Under the pieces are notes generated by a model. It was not told the DNA's origin and ran no database searches. It saw nothing but the letters and a program-made list of their open reading frames with translations. From positions 7,306 to 71,305 of the forward strand of contig BDSY01000037.1 in the NCBI GenBank assembly GCA_002897895.1: a stretch of 64,000 bases of DNA, read 5' to 3'. The translations under genes and the position numbers were made by a program. This document shows positions 9,338-42,180 of the stretch, in pieces. Source of the DNA: a bacterium BMS3Abin06. Its GTDB lineage: Bacteria > Nitrospirota > Thermodesulfovibrionia > UBA6902. The first letter of the stretch is position 1, and each line of letters begins with the position of its first letter.

Positions 9338-10711
9338 TTACATATCTTTCTGGGAAAACATAGCAATTTTCGGCAGCATTACTACTATTGCCGTCAAAAA
9401 CCAGAATGGCTCCATAATACGGATAATAATAAATGTACTGGCAGAAAAAGCCTGAAATAACAGCCCGATAAAACCGGCCAAAAATCCCAGGGTTAACCCC
9501 CGGGCCCAATCGTCTTTCATAAGGTTGAGAGTCCGTGTCCCCTCCCAGAAAATACTTGCCATCAACCAGACAAATACCAAAAAACCGATCAGACCTGTCT
9601 CTCCCAGGACACGGGCATATTGTGAATCAACAAAACCGACACCTGTAACCCCATATCCTAAAATGGGGCGTTTGTACCATTTCTCTATTACATATTTCCA
9701 TATCTCTATACGCGCTGCGCCGGATTCTGCAAATGTGATCTGTCTGCCGAACACAGTATAGACTTCTCCTCCTTGAGCAAAGGTAGAGGATATCCGGTCA
9801 TAAACTGATTCAGGGAATAAAATTGGCGACAAAACAATAATAATTAACAGACATATCAATAAAATATGCCGTGCCTTTTTTTTAGTTAATATTATCATGG
9901 AAATATACATCGGGATAAAACCCAGCCATGCGCCCCGGGACAGTGTAAATATAAATGGCGGCACCATAAAACAAAGAAGCCCCAAGAGTGCAATTCGCTG
10001 TCTTACCGAGTTAGAATATAAAATAAGCCCCATAACTATCGCTATCATTAAAAGTAAATAACCCGCCAGGGTATTCGCCTCTCCGCTCTCTATCCCGTCA
10101 AAAGGGGCGGCAACCCGTGTAACTCCTGTAAGATGCAGTTGCCACGCATAAGCACTGACTAAAAAACAGGTCAGCAATATAAAAAATGTAAACATCCTCA
10201 CCTGTCTTATATTTTTTATATTGTTGCTTACCATAAAAAAAAGCAGGAAATATTCAAAATATTTCAAGAGGTAAAAAAAACTTTCTTTATAACCGGTGTA
10301 TCCTTGCAATATACCCAGGCCTGTGGCTAACAGACATATTAATATATAGAAGAGGATAGGTCTGTTAAGAGAAGTAACCCTTGACAGGGCAAGCTCTTTG
10401 TTTACAGCCATCTTGGCCAGCCAGCCCAAAAAGACCACGAACAAAAATATATCATCCATCCGCAAAACAACGGCCCTGCCTCTAATCCCTCCCACCGGCA
10501 ACTCGGGCGACAGCAGCATTGAAAAGATCAGGATAACCAGCGCTGCATCGGTATTTGTAAAGGCGATTATAAATATAGTTACTGCAAGGAGAAAAATAAC
10601 GGGAAATTGAGGGGGTATTTTAAAAATGTTCAAGAGTGCTACAGCAACAAGAAAGAGTAAGGCAATTACAATAACAAGGCTTGTCTGTCCATTTTTATTC
10701 ATTTTTATCAC
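9338..10711 (-). CDS. O-antigen ligase / Wzy-like polymerase
   Basis: 457 aa polytopic membrane protein with a large periplasmic loop, as in the O-antigen ligase family. Confidence 0.55.
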   Translation of the reverse strand: MIKMNKNGQTSLVIVIALLFLVAVALLNIFKIPPQFPVIFLLAVTIFIIAFTNTDAALVILIFSMLLSPELPVGGIRGRAVVLRMDDIFLFVVFLGWLAKMAVNKELALSRVTSLNRPILFYILICLLATGLGILQGYTGYKESFFYLLKYFEYFLLFFMVSNNIKNIRQVRMFTFFILLTCFLVSAYAWQLHLTGVTRVAAPFDGIESGEANTLAGYLLLMIAIVMGLILYSNSVRQRIALLGLLCFMVPPFIFTLSRGAWLGFIPMYISMIILTKKKARHILLICLLIIIVLSPILFPESVYDRISSTFAQGGEVYTVFGRQITFAESGAARIEIWKYVIEKWYKRPILGYGVTGVGFVDSQYARVLGETGLIGFLVFVWLMASIFWEGTRTLNLMKDDWARGLTLGFLAGFIGLLFQAFSASTFIIIRIMEPFWFLTAIVVMLPKIAMFSQKDM

Positions 10712-13887: not shown

Positions 13888-14796
13888 TTGTATAATAGCT
13901 ACTTAAGCTTTTATTTCATGGTATATTATCAAGAAACGGAACAAATTAATCAAGTGAAATATATATTAGAAGTAGATGGACTGAGCAAGGATTTTATCCC
14001 TCCTCTCTCTTTCAGAAAATTGATCGGGCTTGATTTCAGGCACAGAAGGCAGACCAGGGCGCTTGAGGATGTTTCATTTTCCCTTAAGAAGGGAAAGATA
14101 CTTGGTGTTCTCGGGCCTAACGGAGCGGGAAAGACCACCCTTTTAAAGATATTAGCTACCCTCATACTCCCGGATAAAGGCAGCGTGCTTATAAACGGCT
14201 GGAGCGTCGGCATTGATGACAACAAAATCAAATCCCTTATCGGGTTGGTCTCCTCACAGGAGAGGAGCTTTTACTGGCGGCTTACCGGGAGGCAGAATCT
14301 TGAATTTTTCGCGCTTATGTATGATCTGGAAAATCCGGGAAACAAAATTGAAGAATTGTTTGACCTCTTTGAGATAGATTACCAGGACAACCGCTTTGAT
14401 TCTTACTCCACTGGAATGAAACAGAAATTCGCCTTAATGAGAGGGCTGCTCAATGATCCGGGGCTTCTGCTTTTAGATGAACCGACCAGAAGTCTGGATT
14501 ACACAACATCCCTGAATTTCAGGAATTTCATAAAAGAGAACCTGGTCCTGGAAAAAGGAAAGACGGTTGTCTTCACCTCCCACAACATGGATGAGGCCAT
14601 GCATTTTTGTGACATATTTATGATACTGCATAAAGGGAGGCTTTATGCCATGGGGACACTGGATGAACTGCGAAAAAAGATAAATAATCAAACTGCGTCA
14701 CTGGGTGAGATATTTGTAAAATTGACTGAAGGGGAAAGCTTGACAAGAAGTCAGAAGTCAGAAGTCAGGAGTCAGAAGAAAAAGAGAAAAAACTAA
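13888..14796 (+). CDS. ABC transporter ATP-binding protein
   Basis: Walker A GPNGAGKTT, signature YSTGMKQK, Walker B LLLLDEPT. The C-terminal tail is encoded by tandem AGTCAGA heptamers. Confidence 0.8.
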   Translation: MYNSYLSFYFMVYYQETEQINQVKYILEVDGLSKDFIPPLSFRKLIGLDFRHRRQTRALEDVSFSLKKGKILGVLGPNGAGKTTLLKILATLILPDKGSVLINGWSVGIDDNKIKSLIGLVSSQERSFYWRLTGRQNLEFFALMYDLENPGNKIEELFDLFEIDYQDNRFDSYSTGMKQKFALMRGLLNDPGLLLLDEPTRSLDYTTSLNFRNFIKENLVLEKGKTVVFTSHNMDEAMHFCDIFMILHKGRLYAMGTLDELRKKINNQTASLGEIFVKLTEGESLTRSQKSEVRSQKKKRKN

Positions 14797-14930
14797 ACAG
14801 TTTCAAGTTCCAAAGCAATTCTGGATTCTGGATTCTGACTCCTGGCTTCTTTATCGGATATCTTAATAATACCCTGTGAACTATTACAAAATAATTTGGC
14901 CCTTAGTGACTTTATGGCGGAGCAGTTTTT

Positions 14931-26815: not shown

Positions 26816-27439
26816 TCATTGACCTCCCTTATTCAATTTCTCCGATAGATATTCCTGCAGTTTTCTTAATGCCTTGCCTCTATGGCTTAAGGCATTCTTT
26901 TCGTCATCACTCATCTCTGCAAATGTTCTGTCATAACCCTCTGGATAAAAAACAGGATCATATCCAAAGCCTTTTTTACCTTTGGGGGCCATGCCGATGC
27001 TGCCCTCTACGGATCCGAAAAAAGTCTTAACATCATCGCCGGACGCCAGGGCTATACAGCAGACAAACCTTGCGCTCCTTTTTTCAGGCGGAACACCTTT
27101 CATTTCATTTAAGAGTTTTTCAAGATTGGCGATGTCATCCGCGGATTCTCCTGCATACCTCGCAGACAAAACTCCGGGAGCTCCATTCAGCGCATCTACC
27201 TCAAGCCCTGAATCATCGGCAATAGCTGTCATACCGGTACACTTTGATGTATATACTGCTTTTTTCAGGGCATTTGCCTCAAATGTGTCGCCATCCTCTT
27301 CCACCTCCTCACATTCCGGAAAATTATCAGGCGTAAGGATATTAACAGAGAGCCCTGTTCCCGGGAGTACATCCGTCTCCATTATCTTCCTCAACTCCTC
27401 AACCTTCTTTTTATTTCTTGACGCCAGAACTATATTCAT
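26816..27439 (-). CDS. rdgB: non-canonical purine NTP pyrophosphatase (RdgB/HAM1)
   Basis: MNIVLASRNKKKVEEL, FGYDPVF and SHRGKAL motifs. Confidence 0.8.
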   Translation of the reverse strand: MNIVLASRNKKKVEELRKIMETDVLPGTGLSVNILTPDNFPECEEVEEDGDTFEANALKKAVYTSKCTGMTAIADDSGLEVDALNGAPGVLSARYAGESADDIANLEKLLNEMKGVPPEKRSARFVCCIALASGDDVKTFFGSVEGSIGMAPKGKKGFGYDPVFYPEGYDRTFAEMSDDEKNALSHRGKALRKLQEYLSEKLNKGGQ

Positions 27440-28449
27440 AACTCATAACTCTTAACTCTTAACTCTAATTGTGATGCAAGTTTTATTGCTTCAAGCATGC
27501 TTGAGGGATTTGCCATATTTTTCCATGCAATGTCAAACGCCGTACCGTGGTCCGGCGAAGTTCTGATTACCGGCAGTCCGACTGTAACATTTACCCCTGT
27601 ATCAAACGCAAGCATTTTAAAGGGGATCAAACCCTGGTCGTGATACATGCAGACAATTATATCAAATTCACCGTTATACGCCTTATGAAAAACAACATCC
27701 GGCGGAAACGGTCCCGAAACATTAATACCTTCTTTTTTAGCCTTTTCAACCGCAGGCGCTATGGCGCTGAGTTCCTCTTTACCCATAATCCCTGATTCTC
27801 CGGCATGGGGATTCAGTCCTGCTGCAGCAATTCGCGGATTTTCGATTCCGAGCATATCAGTTCCCATTCTTGCAAGCCTGATTGTTTCTAAGACAAGTTT
27901 CTCGTTAATTTTTCCCGGAACATCTTTTAATGCCATATGAATCGTACAAAGAATTATCTTCAGCCTCTCACTGGTAAACATCATTGCAAAGTCTTTTGTA
28001 TTTGTCAGCTCTGCCAATAACTCGGTATGCCCCGGCCAGGAATAACCCGCCAGCTTAAGCGACTCCTTTGATATTGGAGCAGTAACAATTGCATCTATCT
28101 CATTTCTTTTGGCCAGCTCCACTGCTTTTTTAATATAATCAACCAATGCCTTGCCCGCTTTTCCGGAAGGGATACCTCTTTTAAAAGGCGGGCTGGATTT
28201 AATATTAAATACTTCAATAATTCCAGGTGCCGGCTTTGAATTGGATATGCTGGAAATTGATCTGATTTCAAGTGGAAGACCTGAAAGCTTGACAGCCTGA
28301 TTCAAAACCCCGGCATCACCTATAACAACGGGTCTGCAATAGTCCCGTACTTCAGCGTAAGACAGCGCCTTAACAATTACCTCAGGCCCGATCCCGCCGG
28401 GCTCTCCCATTGTTACTGCCACTCTTTTAACGCTGCCCGATGATATCAT
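27436..28449 (-). CDS. pdxA: 4-hydroxythreonine-4-phosphate dehydrogenase
   Basis: MGEPGGIGPEV and HGTAFDIA motifs. The C-terminal residues are encoded by a TAACTCT heptamer repeat at 27440..27470. Confidence 0.85.
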   Translation of the reverse strand: MISSGSVKRVAVTMGEPGGIGPEVIVKALSYAEVRDYCRPVVIGDAGVLNQAVKLSGLPLEIRSISSISNSKPAPGIIEVFNIKSSPPFKRGIPSGKAGKALVDYIKKAVELAKRNEIDAIVTAPISKESLKLAGYSWPGHTELLAELTNTKDFAMMFTSERLKIILCTIHMALKDVPGKINEKLVLETIRLARMGTDMLGIENPRIAAAGLNPHAGESGIMGKEELSAIAPAVEKAKKEGINVSGPFPPDVVFHKAYNGEFDIIVCMYHDQGLIPFKMLAFDTGVNVTVGLPVIRTSPDHGTAFDIAWKNMANPSSMLEAIKLASQLELRVKSYEL

Positions 28450-31677: not shown

Positions 31678-31786
31678 GGCGCAAAGTGGCAAAGGCACAC
31701 AGGCACAAAGTTTAAAAGAAACATAAGAAAAGTCCCTGTCCTTTTCTTTCACTTTGTGCCTTTGCCACTTTGCGCCTTTGTGCCTG
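31678..31786. repeat. long palindrome (family C, GGCACAA/AAGGCAC heptamers) in a divergent promoter region
   Basis: Arm ggcgcaaagtggcaaaggcacacaggcacaaagt and its reverse complement flank a roughly 40 nt loop. A related single arm lies at 29407..29435, upstream of rbr. Confidence 0.7.
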
Positions 31787-31877
31787 CCTCATACTATACA
31801 ATTATATATGAAATAAGATTAAAGTGTGCCGTATTCCTTACCCATTGCCTTAACCTCTTATTTCTGATACGATACCT

Positions 31878-34113: not shown

Positions 34114-34589
34114 GTTGAATCAAGGATTGCATGGAATGGCCACATTGAGCCTGACCGGCTGCTTATTTACCGCATAGAAGGAAGCGGGCTTTGTCTTGTA
34201 AGAACAGGGACTCATTCCGACCTGTATTGATTAGCCGGCAGGTGGCGGATCTATCTACTAAAGTGGAATAATTGATTGAATAACTCCCCCTACCCCTCTT
34301 ATCCTGAGAGGTGAGGTATGGTTTCCCCATTGGGTTAAGGGGGATTAAGGGGGGTTACTTCAATAACCCTAAACCACTGAACCCTGAACCCTCTTTTCCC
34401 CAGCTATTGTCAAATCGGACTTTTAGTAGTAGAATAACGGACATACATGGTTGGGCAGCAGGAATTTGTTTCAGGGAAAGACAGGGCCGGGCTTCAGCCC
34501 TGTGCATCATGATCAATTCCCTGAAGGGCTTTTCCAGCCAGCACTAAATCATAGCCTCAACCTCAAAGATTGAAAAAAATTAAAAGAAG

Positions 34590-35992: not shown

Positions 35993-36618
35993 TTGAAATG
36001 TATGACATGGCTCTGGAGAGCCATACCCGGTACAGAGTCTTTTTCTCTCACAACAATCTATCCCGGCCTGATTACAGGCTCCGGTTACAATCATCCTGCA
36101 GGTGAAAGAGAGTCGGACAGTTCATCTGACTTTCAGATGGGATTCTACTTTGACCATACCACCGGTATGCCTGTTATCCCCGGTTCAACAGTAAAAGGTA
36201 TTTTAAAGAGCGTATTTCCTAAAAATGAAGACAAGGAGATAATTCAGGAAAAGATAAAATATATAAACGGCTTACTTGACAATAAGTTTGAAATTACAAT
36301 TGACAATTGGCAGAACCTCTTTGAAAAAGGCAACATCTTCTACGATGCATTTATATCTTCCGTGCCACAGGACGGCAGGATTTTCGCCGAGGACTATATA
36401 ACACCCCACAAAAATATATTAAAAATCCCATACCTATCCGTTTTCTGAAGATTGCCCCCGGCGTTGCCTTTACATTCCAGTTCAGACTGAAAGATTCCGT
36501 GCTCTATAACGAGCTGAAAATATCGGTCAGTGAGAAAAAAGAGCTTTTCAAACGGATATTGCTTGATTTCGGTATCGGAGCAAAAAGGAATGTGGGGTAT
36601 GGTAATTTTATAGAGTGA
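35993..36618 (+). pseudogene. type III CRISPR RAMP protein (Cmr6/Cas7-like), frameshifted
   Basis: N-terminus has FSLTTIYPGLITGSGY and IPGSTVKGILKS, the RAMP G-loop that matches the IPGSS(L/I)KG hallmark. After a -1 shift in the A5 run at 36421..36425 the frame continues as NPIPIRFLKIAPGVAFTFQFRL...DFGIGAKRNVGYGNFIE, a C-terminal Gly-rich loop. Confidence 0.6.
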
Positions 36619-37375: not shown

Positions 37376-37744
37376 ATTCCCGGTTTACATGCCGGCATTT
37401 TCGGAATAATCGACCCAAAAGTCCTGCTGGTTTTCTTTCCCCTTGCGCTTCTTATCGGGATATTCGTTCAGATAATCCGGGAAGACAAGCCGATTACGGA
37501 GTCTTTTATGGAGGTAGCCTATGAAGACAGTAGCAGTAGCTAAATCCCTGGAAGAAGTCTGGATTTGGAAGGAGAGATGTTATGAGGAGTCAAAGGGACT
37601 GAGCGTTAAAGACTATTTGGGCAAAGTTCATAAAAATGCCGAACAGGCCTTAAAGGAGACCGGATTTATAGAGAAGGATGGCAAGCTGAAAAAAATAGAA
37701 TGACATATTTCAAAGACCACTTATCAGAACCTGTCATTCTGTCA

Positions 37745-38165
37745 AATATCCTTTCCCGGTGAGCTATCACGATTTGCGTACTTTTTGAAAAAACAGACAA
37801 ATCGCATAACCCATTGATAAATAAGCAAAACAGTGGACTTGAGGGGATTTGGAGGGAAAAACAGGTGTCAAAAAAAGTACGCAAATGCCGGATTGCAGGG
37901 GTTGCAAAAAGAGGTTTGCGTACTTTTCGTGATATGCACAGTTTTTGGGCAAAAAATATTGTTTAAAAACAGGGGGGTAGAGAGGCGGTTTTTGGACAAG
38001 TACGCAAATCCCCGGAAGTGAAGGGATGAGGAAAACGTTTGCGTACTTTTTGAAAGAAGGAAATGTAATATTTTCAGGGAGTTAGAGAAGATGAGAGTCC
38101 GGGAATGCAGTTTTTCAGGTATTCAGAAAGGGGGATTTGCGTACTTTTTGATGCAATCCGGGGAA
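37745..38165. repeat. array of six copies of a 16 bp motif (CAAAAAGTACGCAAAT) in alternating orientation
   Basis: Copies lie near 37753 (reverse), 37869 (forward), 37913 (reverse), 37995 (forward), 38037 (reverse) and 38143 (reverse). Spacings are irregular, 44 to 125 bp. Confidence 0.7.
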
Positions 38166-38403
38166 ATGTTGAAAATCAGGGGGTTGTCTGCGATAGTGAA
38201 ATTTTGCTTGACTAAGTCAGGGAAGAAAATGTATAAATATTACAGTGTTCTATGACCCGAACAGTTTGAAGGGGATTGAGACTTGTTAAAAAAAGGTTCC
38301 GGGTTTTGAACTGAAGGGTGAACAGATCAGATTTCAACTCCCAAACTCCCAAACTCTCCAACTCTGAACCCCGAACCCATTAACCTCACAACCTGAATCG
38401 TTT

Positions 38404-38458
38404 GAACCTTGAACCCTGAACCCTGAACCCTGAACCCTGAACCCTGAACCTTGAACCT
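38404..38458. repeat. tandem heptamer microsatellite (GAACCCT)x5 perfect, with degenerate flanking units
   Basis: gaaccttgaaccctgaaccctgaaccctgaaccctgaaccctgaaccttgaacc, about 60 bp upstream of the cas6 start. Confidence 0.85.
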
Positions 38459-38515
38459 GTCTTTTCACCCCCCTTGTCTTTTTAATCCCCTGCTGCTATT
38501 CTGTCATTTAAAACA

Positions 38516-39493
38516 ATGCACACTCAATCAAACGAGCTCAGATACCTGACATTCGCCAGATTCATATTCAGGGCAAGGGCGGAAACCGTACTCAGACTGC
38601 CTCCCTACAAGGGCTCCACATTCAGGGGCGGTTTCGGCTTCAACCTCAGGAAGACCATCTGCATTAACAGGGCGGATGACTGCAACAGGTGTGTTCTGGC
38701 ATCAAGATGCATTTACACCTATATTTTTGAGACAAAGCCCCCGGAGGACCCGGGGATTAAACACAGTTTCTCGGAAGTGCCCCACCCCTATGTGCTGAAT
38801 CCCCCGCATACAACAAAAGAGACCTTTGAGCCCGGTGAGACTTTTACATTCGAGCTGGTCCTTTTCGGAAAGGCCATTGATTACTTTCCCTACTTCCTGT
38901 TTGTATTTCAGCAAATGGGTGAGAACGGGATAGGCAGGGAAAAAGGCAGGTTTGAGATTGAGACGGTAATGAACGAAAGATTTGACGGTGAAGCCGGGAT
39001 ATACAGCTCCGCGGATAAATGTTTAAAAGGCAATATCCAGGTATACTCCTCCGAGAACTTTTTCCGGGTTTATACGGATATTATAAAGATGAATCCCGGG
39101 CAGATAACAGTGCGCCTGCTTACACCGTTCAGGTTCAAAAAAGACGGGCATTTCAGGGATGACTTTGACTTTTTCGACCTGTTCAGGAACCTGCTGAACA
39201 GGCTGTACCTGCTGACATACTTTCACTGCGGCAACAGGTTCGACCGCGACCACAGGGACCTGCTTGAAAAGAGCAAGGCTGTTGAGATAAAGGACAAGGA
39301 TATCAGGTGGCATGACTGGACCAGGTACAGCAACCGGCAAAAAGCGAAGATGAAAATAGGCGGAGTGAGCGGGGAGTTCCGTATACAGGGTGATCTTGCG
39401 CCGTTCCTCCCGTTTCTGAAGATCGGGGAATACACCAACATAGGCAAGGCAACAAGCATGGGACTGGGAAAATACGAGATTGTGTGCCTGTAA
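38516..39493 (+). CDS. cas6: CRISPR-associated endoribonuclease Cas6 (orphan)
   Basis: N-terminus RLPPYKGSTFRGGFGFNL. C-terminal Gly-rich loop GKATSMGLGKYEI. About 325 aa. No adjacent CRISPR array. Confidence 0.65.
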   Translation: MHTQSNELRYLTFARFIFRARAETVLRLPPYKGSTFRGGFGFNLRKTICINRADDCNRCVLASRCIYTYIFETKPPEDPGIKHSFSEVPHPYVLNPPHTTKETFEPGETFTFELVLFGKAIDYFPYFLFVFQQMGENGIGREKGRFEIETVMNERFDGEAGIYSSADKCLKGNIQVYSSENFFRVYTDIIKMNPGQITVRLLTPFRFKKDGHFRDDFDFFDLFRNLLNRLYLLTYFHCGNRFDRDHRDLLEKSKAVEIKDKDIRWHDWTRYSNRQKAKMKIGGVSGEFRIQGDLAPFLPFLKIGEYTNIGKATSMGLGKYEIVCL

Positions 39494-41773: not shown

Positions 41774-42180
41774 TGTCATTGTGGCTTGTCCGGCTTGTCA
41801 TTCCGGCTTGTCCGGCTTGTCATTCCGGCTTGTCCGGAATCTTTCTTACAAGGTGCTTCCATGCAGAATAAACGCTTTGCAGTGTATATTATGGCTAATG
41901 CCAGGCCAACTCTTTATGTAGGGATAACAAACAACCTCATAAGAAGAGTCTATGAACATAAAAACAATCTTAACCCACGCAGTTTTACAGCAAAATATTA
42001 TCTTCACAGACTTGTATATTACGAGTTGTGTGAGAATAGCTTCAGTGCTATCATCAGGGAAAAACAGATAAAAAATATGAGTAGACAGGGGAAGATAGAA
42101 CTTATTAGACAAAGCAACCCGACATTTAGGGATTTATACGAAGATATTGTAGAAAAGATTCCGGACAAGCCGGAATGACA
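41774..42180 (+). mobile_element. small GIY-YIG nuclease element bounded by perfect inverted repeats; source of MITE family A
   Basis: Left end tgtcattgtggcttgtccggc(ttgtcattccggcttgtccggc)x2..aatc. Right end gattccggacaagccggaatgaca. The right repeat supplies the stop codon of the internal gene. Confidence 0.7.
41861..42178 (+). CDS. GIY-YIG domain nuclease (UPF0213-like)
   Basis: [29 protein letters not shown] contains the GIY...YIG motifs. 105 aa. Confidence 0.7.

Follow-up and report, generated by a model that had tools for sequence, protein, structure and literature searches.

Six 16-mer sites upstream of cas6 in bacterium BMS3Abin06, identified by sequence comparison as part of the leader of a one-repeat CRISPR array

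The 64,000 nucleotides of bacterium BMS3Abin06 analysed here (contig BDSY01000037.1; the whole stretch is called the window hereafter) hold a cas6 gene (38516..39493, plus strand) that is preceded by a non-coding interval in which a 16-mer, CAAAAAGTACGCAAAT, recurs in both orientations. Upstream of this interval lie a Cmr6 fragment (35993-36448) and small toxin-antitoxin-like genes, with a DUF2283 gene and an open reading frame (ORF) of 60 amino acids (aa); downstream, cas6 is followed by an AsmA-like gene. By comparison with related loci, the interval is recognised as the leader of a CRISPR array (short palindromic repeats, clustered and regularly interspaced), belonging to a family of arrays that is associated with type III systems, linked to the reverse transcriptase-Cas1 protein (RT-Cas1) and carried by marine Nitrospirota-like bacteria. 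The whole leader measures about 540 bp (37704..38246, plus strand), starting where the 60-aa ORF ends and running up to the last base ahead of a CRISPR repeat, and its GC content is 0.40, versus 0.42 for the window. The odd repeats of the window are the footprint of a leader, and no new kind of repeat element.

With zero to three mismatches allowed, CAAAAAGTACGCAAAT was matched six times in the window, at 37772 (-), 37871 (+), 37914 (-), 37994 (+), 38037 (-) and 38135 (-), and a search of the 64 kb at up to three mismatches gave no further match beyond this 37772-38150 cluster. The chance expectation is 0.94 matches, and six were reached in none of 100 shuffles. A preliminary description of this DNA had reported six copies in a structured non-coding region, and both points are confirmed, since the interval contains short overlapping ORFs only, none of them credible. 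The first site, S1 (37772..37787, minus strand), reads ATTTGCGTACTTTTTG on the plus strand. S2 (37871..37886, plus) and S3 (37914..37929, minus) are the left and right arms of a convergent pair, as are S4 (37994..38009, plus) and S5 (38037..38052, minus), and S6 (38135..38150, minus) stands single. The strand order is therefore - + - + - -: the orientation does flip, as had been described, but the alternation is not strict, the final two sites being direct. Start-to-start spacings are 99, 43, 80, 43 and 98 bp, and replace the 44 to 125 bp given earlier. The GCGTAC core, which had been called near-palindromic, is not itself a palindrome, only its GTAC portion is; the invariant portion of the 16-mer is (G)ATTTGCGTACTTTT. 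The view that this is not a canonical CRISPR array was borne out, as the units are 16 nt long, of mixed orientation and irregularly spaced (43-99 bp), and the true repeat of the locus is a different sequence. At the 16-mer locus, neither a tandem-repeat scan of the window (TRF) nor a scan at the Rfam gathering thresholds returned an array or a match.

The preliminary description had overlooked this true repeat, a lone 36-nt CRISPR repeat, GTTCTATGACCCGAACAGTTTGAAGGGGATTGAGAC, at 38247..38282 on the plus strand. It is present in one copy in the window, without spacer, begins with GT, ends in the ATTGAGAC handle and bears all the hallmarks of a type I/III CRISPR repeat. The leader lies immediately upstream of it, on the strand for which the repeat has the 8-nt ...ATTGAxAC handle as its 3' end, and the gap from S6 to the repeat is 96 nt. 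Between the two, a promoter-like element read from the sequence, TTGACT-N18-TATAAA (38208..38237, plus strand), ends 9 nt ahead of the repeat. A consensus promoter scan did not list it because TATAAA lacks a T at position 6. A search of viral and metagenome collections with the 36-nt repeat gave no match.

Relatives of the leader were found by scanning one genome per species with the paired pattern AGTACGCAAAN{20,40}TTTGCGTACT, which returned 85 stretches. The only leader relatives among them were two stretches from Candidatus Magnetocorallium (L153 and L179). Ca. Magnetocorallium paracelense is a marine magnetotactic member of the Nitrospirota (PMC10278575). The remaining stretches were mostly unrelated long hairpins of GCAAAG 9-mers, or ordinary terminator-like hairpins. 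The Magnetocorallium contig, JAREWP010000085.1, has two clusters of six sites each, in the same order - + - + - - as in the window. Cluster A is located between a csm3-csm4-csm5-CARF-455aa operon and an array of 11 repeats, cluster B between RT-cas1/cas2 and an array of 4 repeats, and in both of them repeat 1 begins 98 nt past the last site. Because each cluster directly precedes an intact array at this distance, the two are CRISPR leaders, and they align colinearly and end to end with the leader of the window. Elsewhere in the Magnetocorallium genome, the paired pattern had no match. At the far end of array A the terminal repeat is degenerate, which fits leader-proximal growth.

Relatives of the Magnetocorallium RT-Cas1 share a module made of cas6, a 166-aa gene, a 370-aa gene, RT-cas1 and cas2, whose cas6 is 68% identical to that of the window. 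This adaptation module is accompanied by csm or cmr genes, and is thus of type III. Wherever their flanks are long enough, these loci carry the same leader. In locus L223, five sites follow cas2 and precede an array of 10 repeats. The L220 contig begins within the leader, and shows S5, S6, a perfect TTGACA-N17-TATAAT at the position equivalent to the promoter-like element of the window, and then an array of 7 repeats. In L224, S1 is found right behind cas2, after which the contig ends. The lone repeat of the window belongs to the same family as the repeats of L220, L223, L228 and the Magnetocorallium arrays, and in the four homologous clusters with arrays of 11, 4, 7 and 10 repeats (Magnetocorallium A and B, L220, L223), S6 lies 98-111 nt ahead of repeat 1.

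Metagenomes added a close relative of the window, L219, which has three sites, identical promoter-like hexamers and a single repeat (~274-308), and has lost the S3-S5 module, as well as a leader fragment at a contig end (L217). A further contig of 1279 bp (L218, from ERZ795048) has five motif copies and IHF-consensus sites (IHF, integration host factor), and is itself flanked by direct repeats of about 100 bp. A CRISPR repeat is not visible on it; the contig may hold a leader without reaching the array, or the motif may serve another purpose there. Two other metagenome matches (L215, L216) were discarded as eukaryote-like tandem repeats of 79 bp.

A diverged relative is L226 (RT-Cas1 only 41% identical), in which cas2 is followed by a leader of about 470 bp with a reiterated and diverged motif, ATTTKCG. 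Seven of its eight occurrences in 11.5 kb fall in the leader, at comparable positions, with a convergent pair of identical 34-nt heptamer offset, and two IHF positions are kept (-277 and -172). Since L226 retains the layout with a diverged motif, the leader architecture is older than the exact motif. This leader ends in a single repeat (10056-10091), beside intact RT-cas1 and cas2 genes. Single-repeat, 'empty' arrays behind full leaders therefore exist and recur, in the window, L219 and L226. To our knowledge, arrays of one repeat would escape the standard array finders, for which two repeats are the minimum.

The positions of the sites relative to repeat 1 show evidence of constraint. Site centres in the window are at -468 (S1), -368 (S2), -326 (S3), -245 (S4), -203 (S5) and -105 (S6), and those of Magnetocorallium at -470, -368, -326, -236, -194 and -107. 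For L223, values of -461 (S1), -246 (S4), -204 (S5) and -105 (S6) were obtained, S2 and S3 not being applicable, and for L220, where S1 to S4 are off the contig, -203 (S5) and -105 (S6). Between the window and Magnetocorallium, S1, S2, S3 and S6 thus agree within 2 bp, and the S4/S5 pair is shifted by 9 bp, about one helical turn. In all convergent pairs at every locus, the core offset is 40, which corresponds to about 42 bp (four helical turns) from centre to centre, and the loop sequences differ. Motif columns are 96% identical between window and Magnetocorallium, versus 49% for the other columns. No mismatch was seen in the 11-nt core among 28 sites, collected at up to one mismatch; L223 has TTTGCGTATTT and one degenerate site. 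Across about 178 kb of related loci, all 22 exact cores fall in leaders, for an expectation of 0.09. Such a pattern suggests that the sites behave as conserved protein-binding sites. GGGG precedes some of them (38131-38146 and 37998-38013 in the window), which makes GGGGATTTGCGTAC, a string that looks like the repeat's 3' end (GGGGATTGAGAC; for L223, GGGGATTGCGAC), a likeness that may be due to chance as only about 5 of the 28 sites show it.

Sites matching the IHF consensus WATCAANNNNTTR are interleaved with the 16-mers. Eight perfect matches were found in four independent leaders, versus 0.20 expected from dinucleotide shuffles, and none of 2000 shuffles reached eight. The positions at about -68, -170, -275 and, on the opposite strand, about -435 recur in the window, Magnetocorallium, L220, L223 and L226. 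In the window, the distal site TATCAATGGGTTA (37807..37819, minus strand, centre -434) is perfect, and a site is present at the same offset past S1 in L219 (perfect), Magnetocorallium leader A and L223 (one mismatch each). The block AAACAGGGGGGTA (37967..37979, plus) is degenerate, with three mismatches counted by hand, and stands where Magnetocorallium has a perfect site at -275. It corresponds to the G-rich AAAACAGG block that the preliminary description had seen interleaved with the 16-mers; such blocks are real, and align with IHF-consensus sites of the related leaders. A second degenerate block, TTTCAGGGAGTTA (38072..38084, plus; two mismatches by hand), occupies the -170 position (-169 in the window), for which Magnetocorallium and L223 have a perfect site and L220 one with a single mismatch. 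The proximal site AATCAGGGGGTTG (38174..38186, plus, centre -67) has one mismatch; at -68, Magnetocorallium is perfect and L223 has one mismatch. These leaders therefore have, like IHF-dependent leaders, consensus sites at conserved distances from repeat 1. They also have a reiterated upstream motif that diverges along with RT-Cas1 and might be recognised by the integrase. The adaptation module is of type III, and not of type I.

Leaders that combine IHF sites with motifs for the integrase or for an accessory factor are a known kind. Type I-F, I-C and some I-E leaders contain more than one IHF site, and motifs specific to the subtype as far as 100-200 bp upstream (10.1101/2023.05.26.542337). 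In type I-F, two inverted-repeat motifs are bound by the Cas2 of the integrase within a folded 150-bp complex, which the authors liken to the lambda attP (10.1101/2023.05.26.542337). The leader described here resembles the I-F leader of Pseudomonas aeruginosa (two IHF sites and two motifs bound by the Cas2 of Cas1-2/3) in its short motif in both orientations, its interleaved IHF sites and its fixed distances to repeat 1, and a common role is presumed, namely folding of the leader and docking of the integrase at the leader-repeat junction. It differs by its type III context with RT-Cas1, by an unrelated motif sequence, by binding that is predicted only, and by size: the I-F leader has two sites of each kind over about 150 bp, whereas here a span of about 470 bp holds six invariant sites of 14-16 bp and about four that are IHF-like. 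The type I-E leader of E. coli likewise has an IHF-consensus site and an upstream motif that positions Cas1-Cas2, but with only one bend and one motif, in a stretch of about 50-60 bp, and no reiterated inverted sites.

Further likenesses are found outside these subtypes. In the type I-A leader of Sulfolobus islandicus, a distal motif is bound by the protein Csa3a, made of a CARF domain and a helix-turn-helix (HTH), which activates CRISPR transcription and modulates Cas1 (PMC9456107), and a Csa3-like CARF gene is present near Magnetocorallium leader A; in contrast to the leader here, that system is archaeal, without IHF, and has one distal motif instead of six, and the window encodes no Csa3-like gene. 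The phage lambda attP intasome also assembles recombinase (arm-type Int) sites of mixed orientation with IHF, Xis and Fis sites over a few hundred bp, whereas no tyrosine integrase or att core is found here and the catalytic target would be the CRISPR repeat. Stand-alone repeats and mini-arrays (SRUs, CreTA/CreR-type cr-like RNAs) resemble the locus in having a single repeat that is identical to another genomic copy and adjoins cas6 or toxin-antitoxin genes, but they are thought to be without acquisition leader, and a full leader is present here. Published RT-Cas1 studies used 20-163 bp of leader and described no upstream motifs, and a search of the searchable literature for the motif string retrieved only primers and unrelated sequences. 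A type III/RT-Cas1 version with six sites thus appears to be new, and what sets it apart is its genetic context, its six invariant copies and its span of about 470 bp.

In the window itself, this leader is orphaned: a single repeat is left, no cas1, cas2 or RT gene is nearby, and the gene upstream is reduced to a stump, with the sites still intact. The stump (37385..37501, plus strand) is a pseudogene remnant, the final 39 codons of the 455-aa gene found ahead of Magnetocorallium leader A (87% aa identity in tblastn, residues 415-453). The other Magnetocorallium cas and RT proteins had no match in the window by tblastn beyond this stump, nor did candidate regulators and the remaining Magnetocorallium proteins, compared with both the window and L006, a second locus of BMS3Abin06. 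No cas1, cas2, RT or csm gene was found in the 64-kb window, no ihfA or ihfB in the window or in a 16-kb stretch of Magnetocorallium, and no BMS3Abin06 protein among the RT-Cas1 homologues found. Between the stump and S1, an insertion of about 200 bp relative to Magnetocorallium contains the 60-aa ORF (37521-37703), which has no family match. The region, with its cores, promoter-like hexamers and repeat, is identical in five contigs obtained for this species from other samples.

The Cas6 of the window (325 aa; GBD96038.1, from an unclassified marine metagenome-assembled genome, Nitrospirae in third-party annotation records) matches Pfam CRISPR_Cas6 and TIGR01877, is 68% identical to the Cas6 of L223 and is the orthologue of the cas6 heading the cas6-166aa-370aa-RTcas1-cas2 module. 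Its nearest relative is the Cas6 of L006 (88% identity). L006 is a complete type III locus, with cas6, a lone repeat, relBE, CARF, cas10, RAMP genes and csx19, and the 16-mer is absent from it. The lone repeat of L006 (10995-11030) is identical to that of the window over its 36 nt, and lies just downstream of cas6 and upstream of relBE, whereas in the window the repeat is upstream of cas6. Because L006 and the window hold paralogous loci of one organism, this shared repeat is an intragenomic duplicate, and not a case of conservation between genomes. Orthologous cas6 genes in L007 and L008 have short upstream gaps, with neither 16-mer nor repeat. No terminator is predicted between the lone repeat and cas6 in the window; therefore, a transcript from the leader promoter would place a Cas6 site in the 5' untranslated region of cas6, which could permit self-processing or autoregulation.

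Our preferred interpretation, to which we give a probability of roughly 0.8, is that the six 16-mers are reiterated protein-binding sites which, together with IHF-type bends, would fold the leader so as to guide spacer integration, array transcription, or both. A sequence-specific protein would sit on the 16-mers at about -468, -368, -326, -245, -203 and -105, at fixed distances from repeat 1, and IHF-type bends at about -434, -275, -170 and -67 would interleave with them, followed by the sigma-70-like promoter and repeat 1. Folding of the ~470-bp leader by these bends would bring the bound protein to the leader-repeat junction. We infer both binding and a role in integration; as binder, either the integrase RT-Cas1/Cas2 or some accessory factor may be envisaged. 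New spacers would then be directed to repeat 1, and array transcription would possibly be set as well, by the logic known from leaders of types I-E and I-F, but at an enlarged scale. How the leader end of the array is found during type III/RT-Cas1 adaptation is poorly defined, and the six invariant sites and phased IHF-like sites provide concrete elements that can be mutated. If correct, the interpretation would carry the principle of the folded leader, known from I-E, I-F and I-C, over to a lineage of type III/RT-Cas1 systems and to far larger dimensions. One may go further and propose, tentatively and with the odds somewhat against it, that the RT-Cas1-linked type III arrays of Thermodesulfovibrionia-like bacteria have an undescribed, very large leader 'integrasome'. 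In it, six invariant sites and about four IHF-type bends would be held at fixed distances from repeat 1 over about 470 bp. Several integrase complexes, or else a dedicated leader-binding factor, would read the sites, the motif would co-diverge with the Cas1 lineage, and single-repeat 'empty' arrays would be kept as ready landing pads.

Several observations weigh against the binding and folding interpretation. No candidate binder of the 16-mers is encoded in the window or in the paralogous L006. A leader of about 470 bp with six sites is about 2.5 to 5 times larger than the 100-200 bp described elsewhere, so that the analogy with known leaders may not hold in detail. The -275 and -170 positions of the window are degenerate, perhaps because of relaxed selection, and the invariance of the 11-nt core is in part an ascertainment effect of the mismatch threshold used for collecting the sites. 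The assignment of TTGACT-N18-TATAAA as a sigma-70-like array promoter is a prediction from its hexamers, and the palindromic 12-mers of L226 would also suit an ordinary HTH regulator.

This last point leads to an alternative that we consider unlikely, though far from negligible, in which the 16-mers are operators of a transcription factor (a Csa3-like CARF-HTH or an Xre-type HTH protein) that controls the pre-crRNA (CRISPR RNA) promoter, and cas6 by read-through, with no role in integration. In L226, the S1 and S2 positions are occupied by perfect or near-perfect 12-bp palindromes (ATTTTCGAAAAT, ATTTTCGCAAAT), typical of the operators of dimeric HTH proteins; a CARF protein with a weak N-terminal HTH match is encoded two genes upstream of Magnetocorallium leader A; L220 and L228 share a conserved HTH_3 protein in the vicinity of cas2; and the promoter-like element is just downstream of the site cluster. 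A precedent is Sulfolobus Csa3a, an activator of CRISPR transcription that is bound to a distal motif of the leader (PMC9456107). However, a distance of up to about 470 bp upstream of a sigma-70-type promoter is long for simple operators, both the IHF-like sites in between and the constant distance from repeat 1 fit integration leaders, and the window and L006 encode no such regulator. Of the three readings offered in the preliminary description, a cluster of operator sites was the nearest, in that the sites are conserved and of fixed spacing, but they travel with the arrays and their leader and not with cas6, the cluster coming after cas2 or a gene of the effector operon in other loci. The two roles are not mutually exclusive, since Csa3a affects integration and Cas1 as well (PMC9456107). 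A separate issue is whether the copy in the window is a dead relic, an ancestral functional leader now decaying between gene remnants and cas6, for which the odds are only slightly below even. In its favour are the reduction of the array to one repeat and of the upstream gene to 39 codons, the lack of cas1, cas2, RT and csm genes in the window and of a BMS3Abin06 RT-Cas1 among the homologues found, the two degenerate IHF-like positions, and the loss of the S3-S5 module in the close relative L219. Against decay, all six 11-nt cores are intact, and the promoter-like hexamers and the repeat are unchanged in the five contigs of the species, the hexamers being found in L219 too. A single repeat need not mean decay either, because L226 combines a one-repeat array and a full leader with intact RT-cas1/cas2. 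A leader and one repeat are in principle enough as an acquisition substrate, as known from work in E. coli.

Two other explanations were weighed. The convergent pairs could act as hairpins or cruciforms, either as terminators or insulators between cas genes and array, or as DNA recognised by its shape. S2/S3 and S4/S5 do fold into stems of 14-18 bp (z-scores of -3 to -7.5) with T-runs after the arms, and a preference of Cas1 for a stem-loop at the leader-proximal end is known from Sulfolobus (PMC9456107). Yet S1 and S6, two sites out of six, are unpaired and as conserved as the rest, and the primary sequence is invariant instead of co-varying. In L223, a C-to-T change affects the minus-strand sites, including the unpaired S6, and is not compensated in the plus-strand arm, and the pair of L226 has an uncompensated mismatch. 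The loops are of 27-29 nt, and the scanner found no terminator-like site. With unpaired sites equally conserved, changes uncompensated and no terminator-like site predicted, a hairpin role is very improbable. The idea that the sites are an eroded CRISPR array, or a dispersed repeat such as a miniature inverted-repeat transposable element (MITE) or a satellite, draws on the repetition of the motif, its irregular spacing and the CRISPR-cas neighbourhood, and we give it next to no credence. The 16-nt units flip in orientation, the same sites are kept upstream of intact arrays with a different repeat of 36-37 nt, no non-leader copy exists in the 178 kb, and the paired pattern occurs in Magnetocorallium at its two leaders only. 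Many unrelated copies, as expected of repetitive extragenic palindromes (REP), bacterial interspersed mosaic elements (BIME), MITEs or insertion sequence ends, were not seen, with none outside the cluster in the window and none in L006. The eroded-array reading of the preliminary description was thus wrong for the 16-mers and nonetheless close, a one-repeat array lying just downstream, and its unusual satellite found no support. Viral collections gave chance matches alone: for a 15-mer, single chance matches only among those listed, and for the paired pattern one chance match, in an RNA-virus-like contig. Readings as sigma-54, LexA, NtcA or integron attC sites were judged by eye and dropped for a misfit in consensus spacing.

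Alongside these systems stand three uncharacterised genes that are conserved (L179 6283-7650; L153 2278-3884; orthologues in L220-L228). The 455-aa protein, encoded just ahead of Magnetocorallium leader A, has a hydrophobic C-terminus. The genes for the 166-aa and 370-aa proteins, the latter with a weak resemblance to PIN, are always immediately upstream of RT-cas1, and downstream of cas6 where cas6 is present. None of the three proteins had a match in Pfam or PDB, the 166-aa and 370-aa proteins having been compared by profiles.

Short tandem repeats of other kinds are common in the intergenic DNA of this lineage. Heptamer and octamer runs such as TGAACCC, AACTCCCA and AACCCTG are found in the window at 38336-38457, 34365-34392, 14746-14837 and 27439-27466. 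The TGAACCC run ahead of cas6, like the runs in L219 and L007, precedes a conserved promoter-like module, CCCCTTGTCTTTTTAATCCCCTGCTGMTATTCTGTCATT, which lies at 38468-38508 before cas6 in the window and is present in L219 and L007 too. At about 31681-31795, the window has a long hairpin of GGCRCAAAG 9-mers (…GCGCAAAGTGGCAAAGGCACACAGGCACAAAG … CTTTGTGCCTTTGCCACTTTGCGCCTTTGTGCC), and elements of a similar style (CACCGCAAAGTACGCAAAGTGCGCAAA…) are multi-copy in Saprospiraceae, a Desulfobacteraceae metagenome-assembled genome and other genomes. Finally, tandem GTCATTCCGGCTTGTCCGG units (41774-41837) stand directly upstream of a small GIY-YIG gene (Pfam; ATG read at about 41862), and GTCATTCCGGCTTGTCCGGAATC, which is like these units, occurs at about 5262 in L227.

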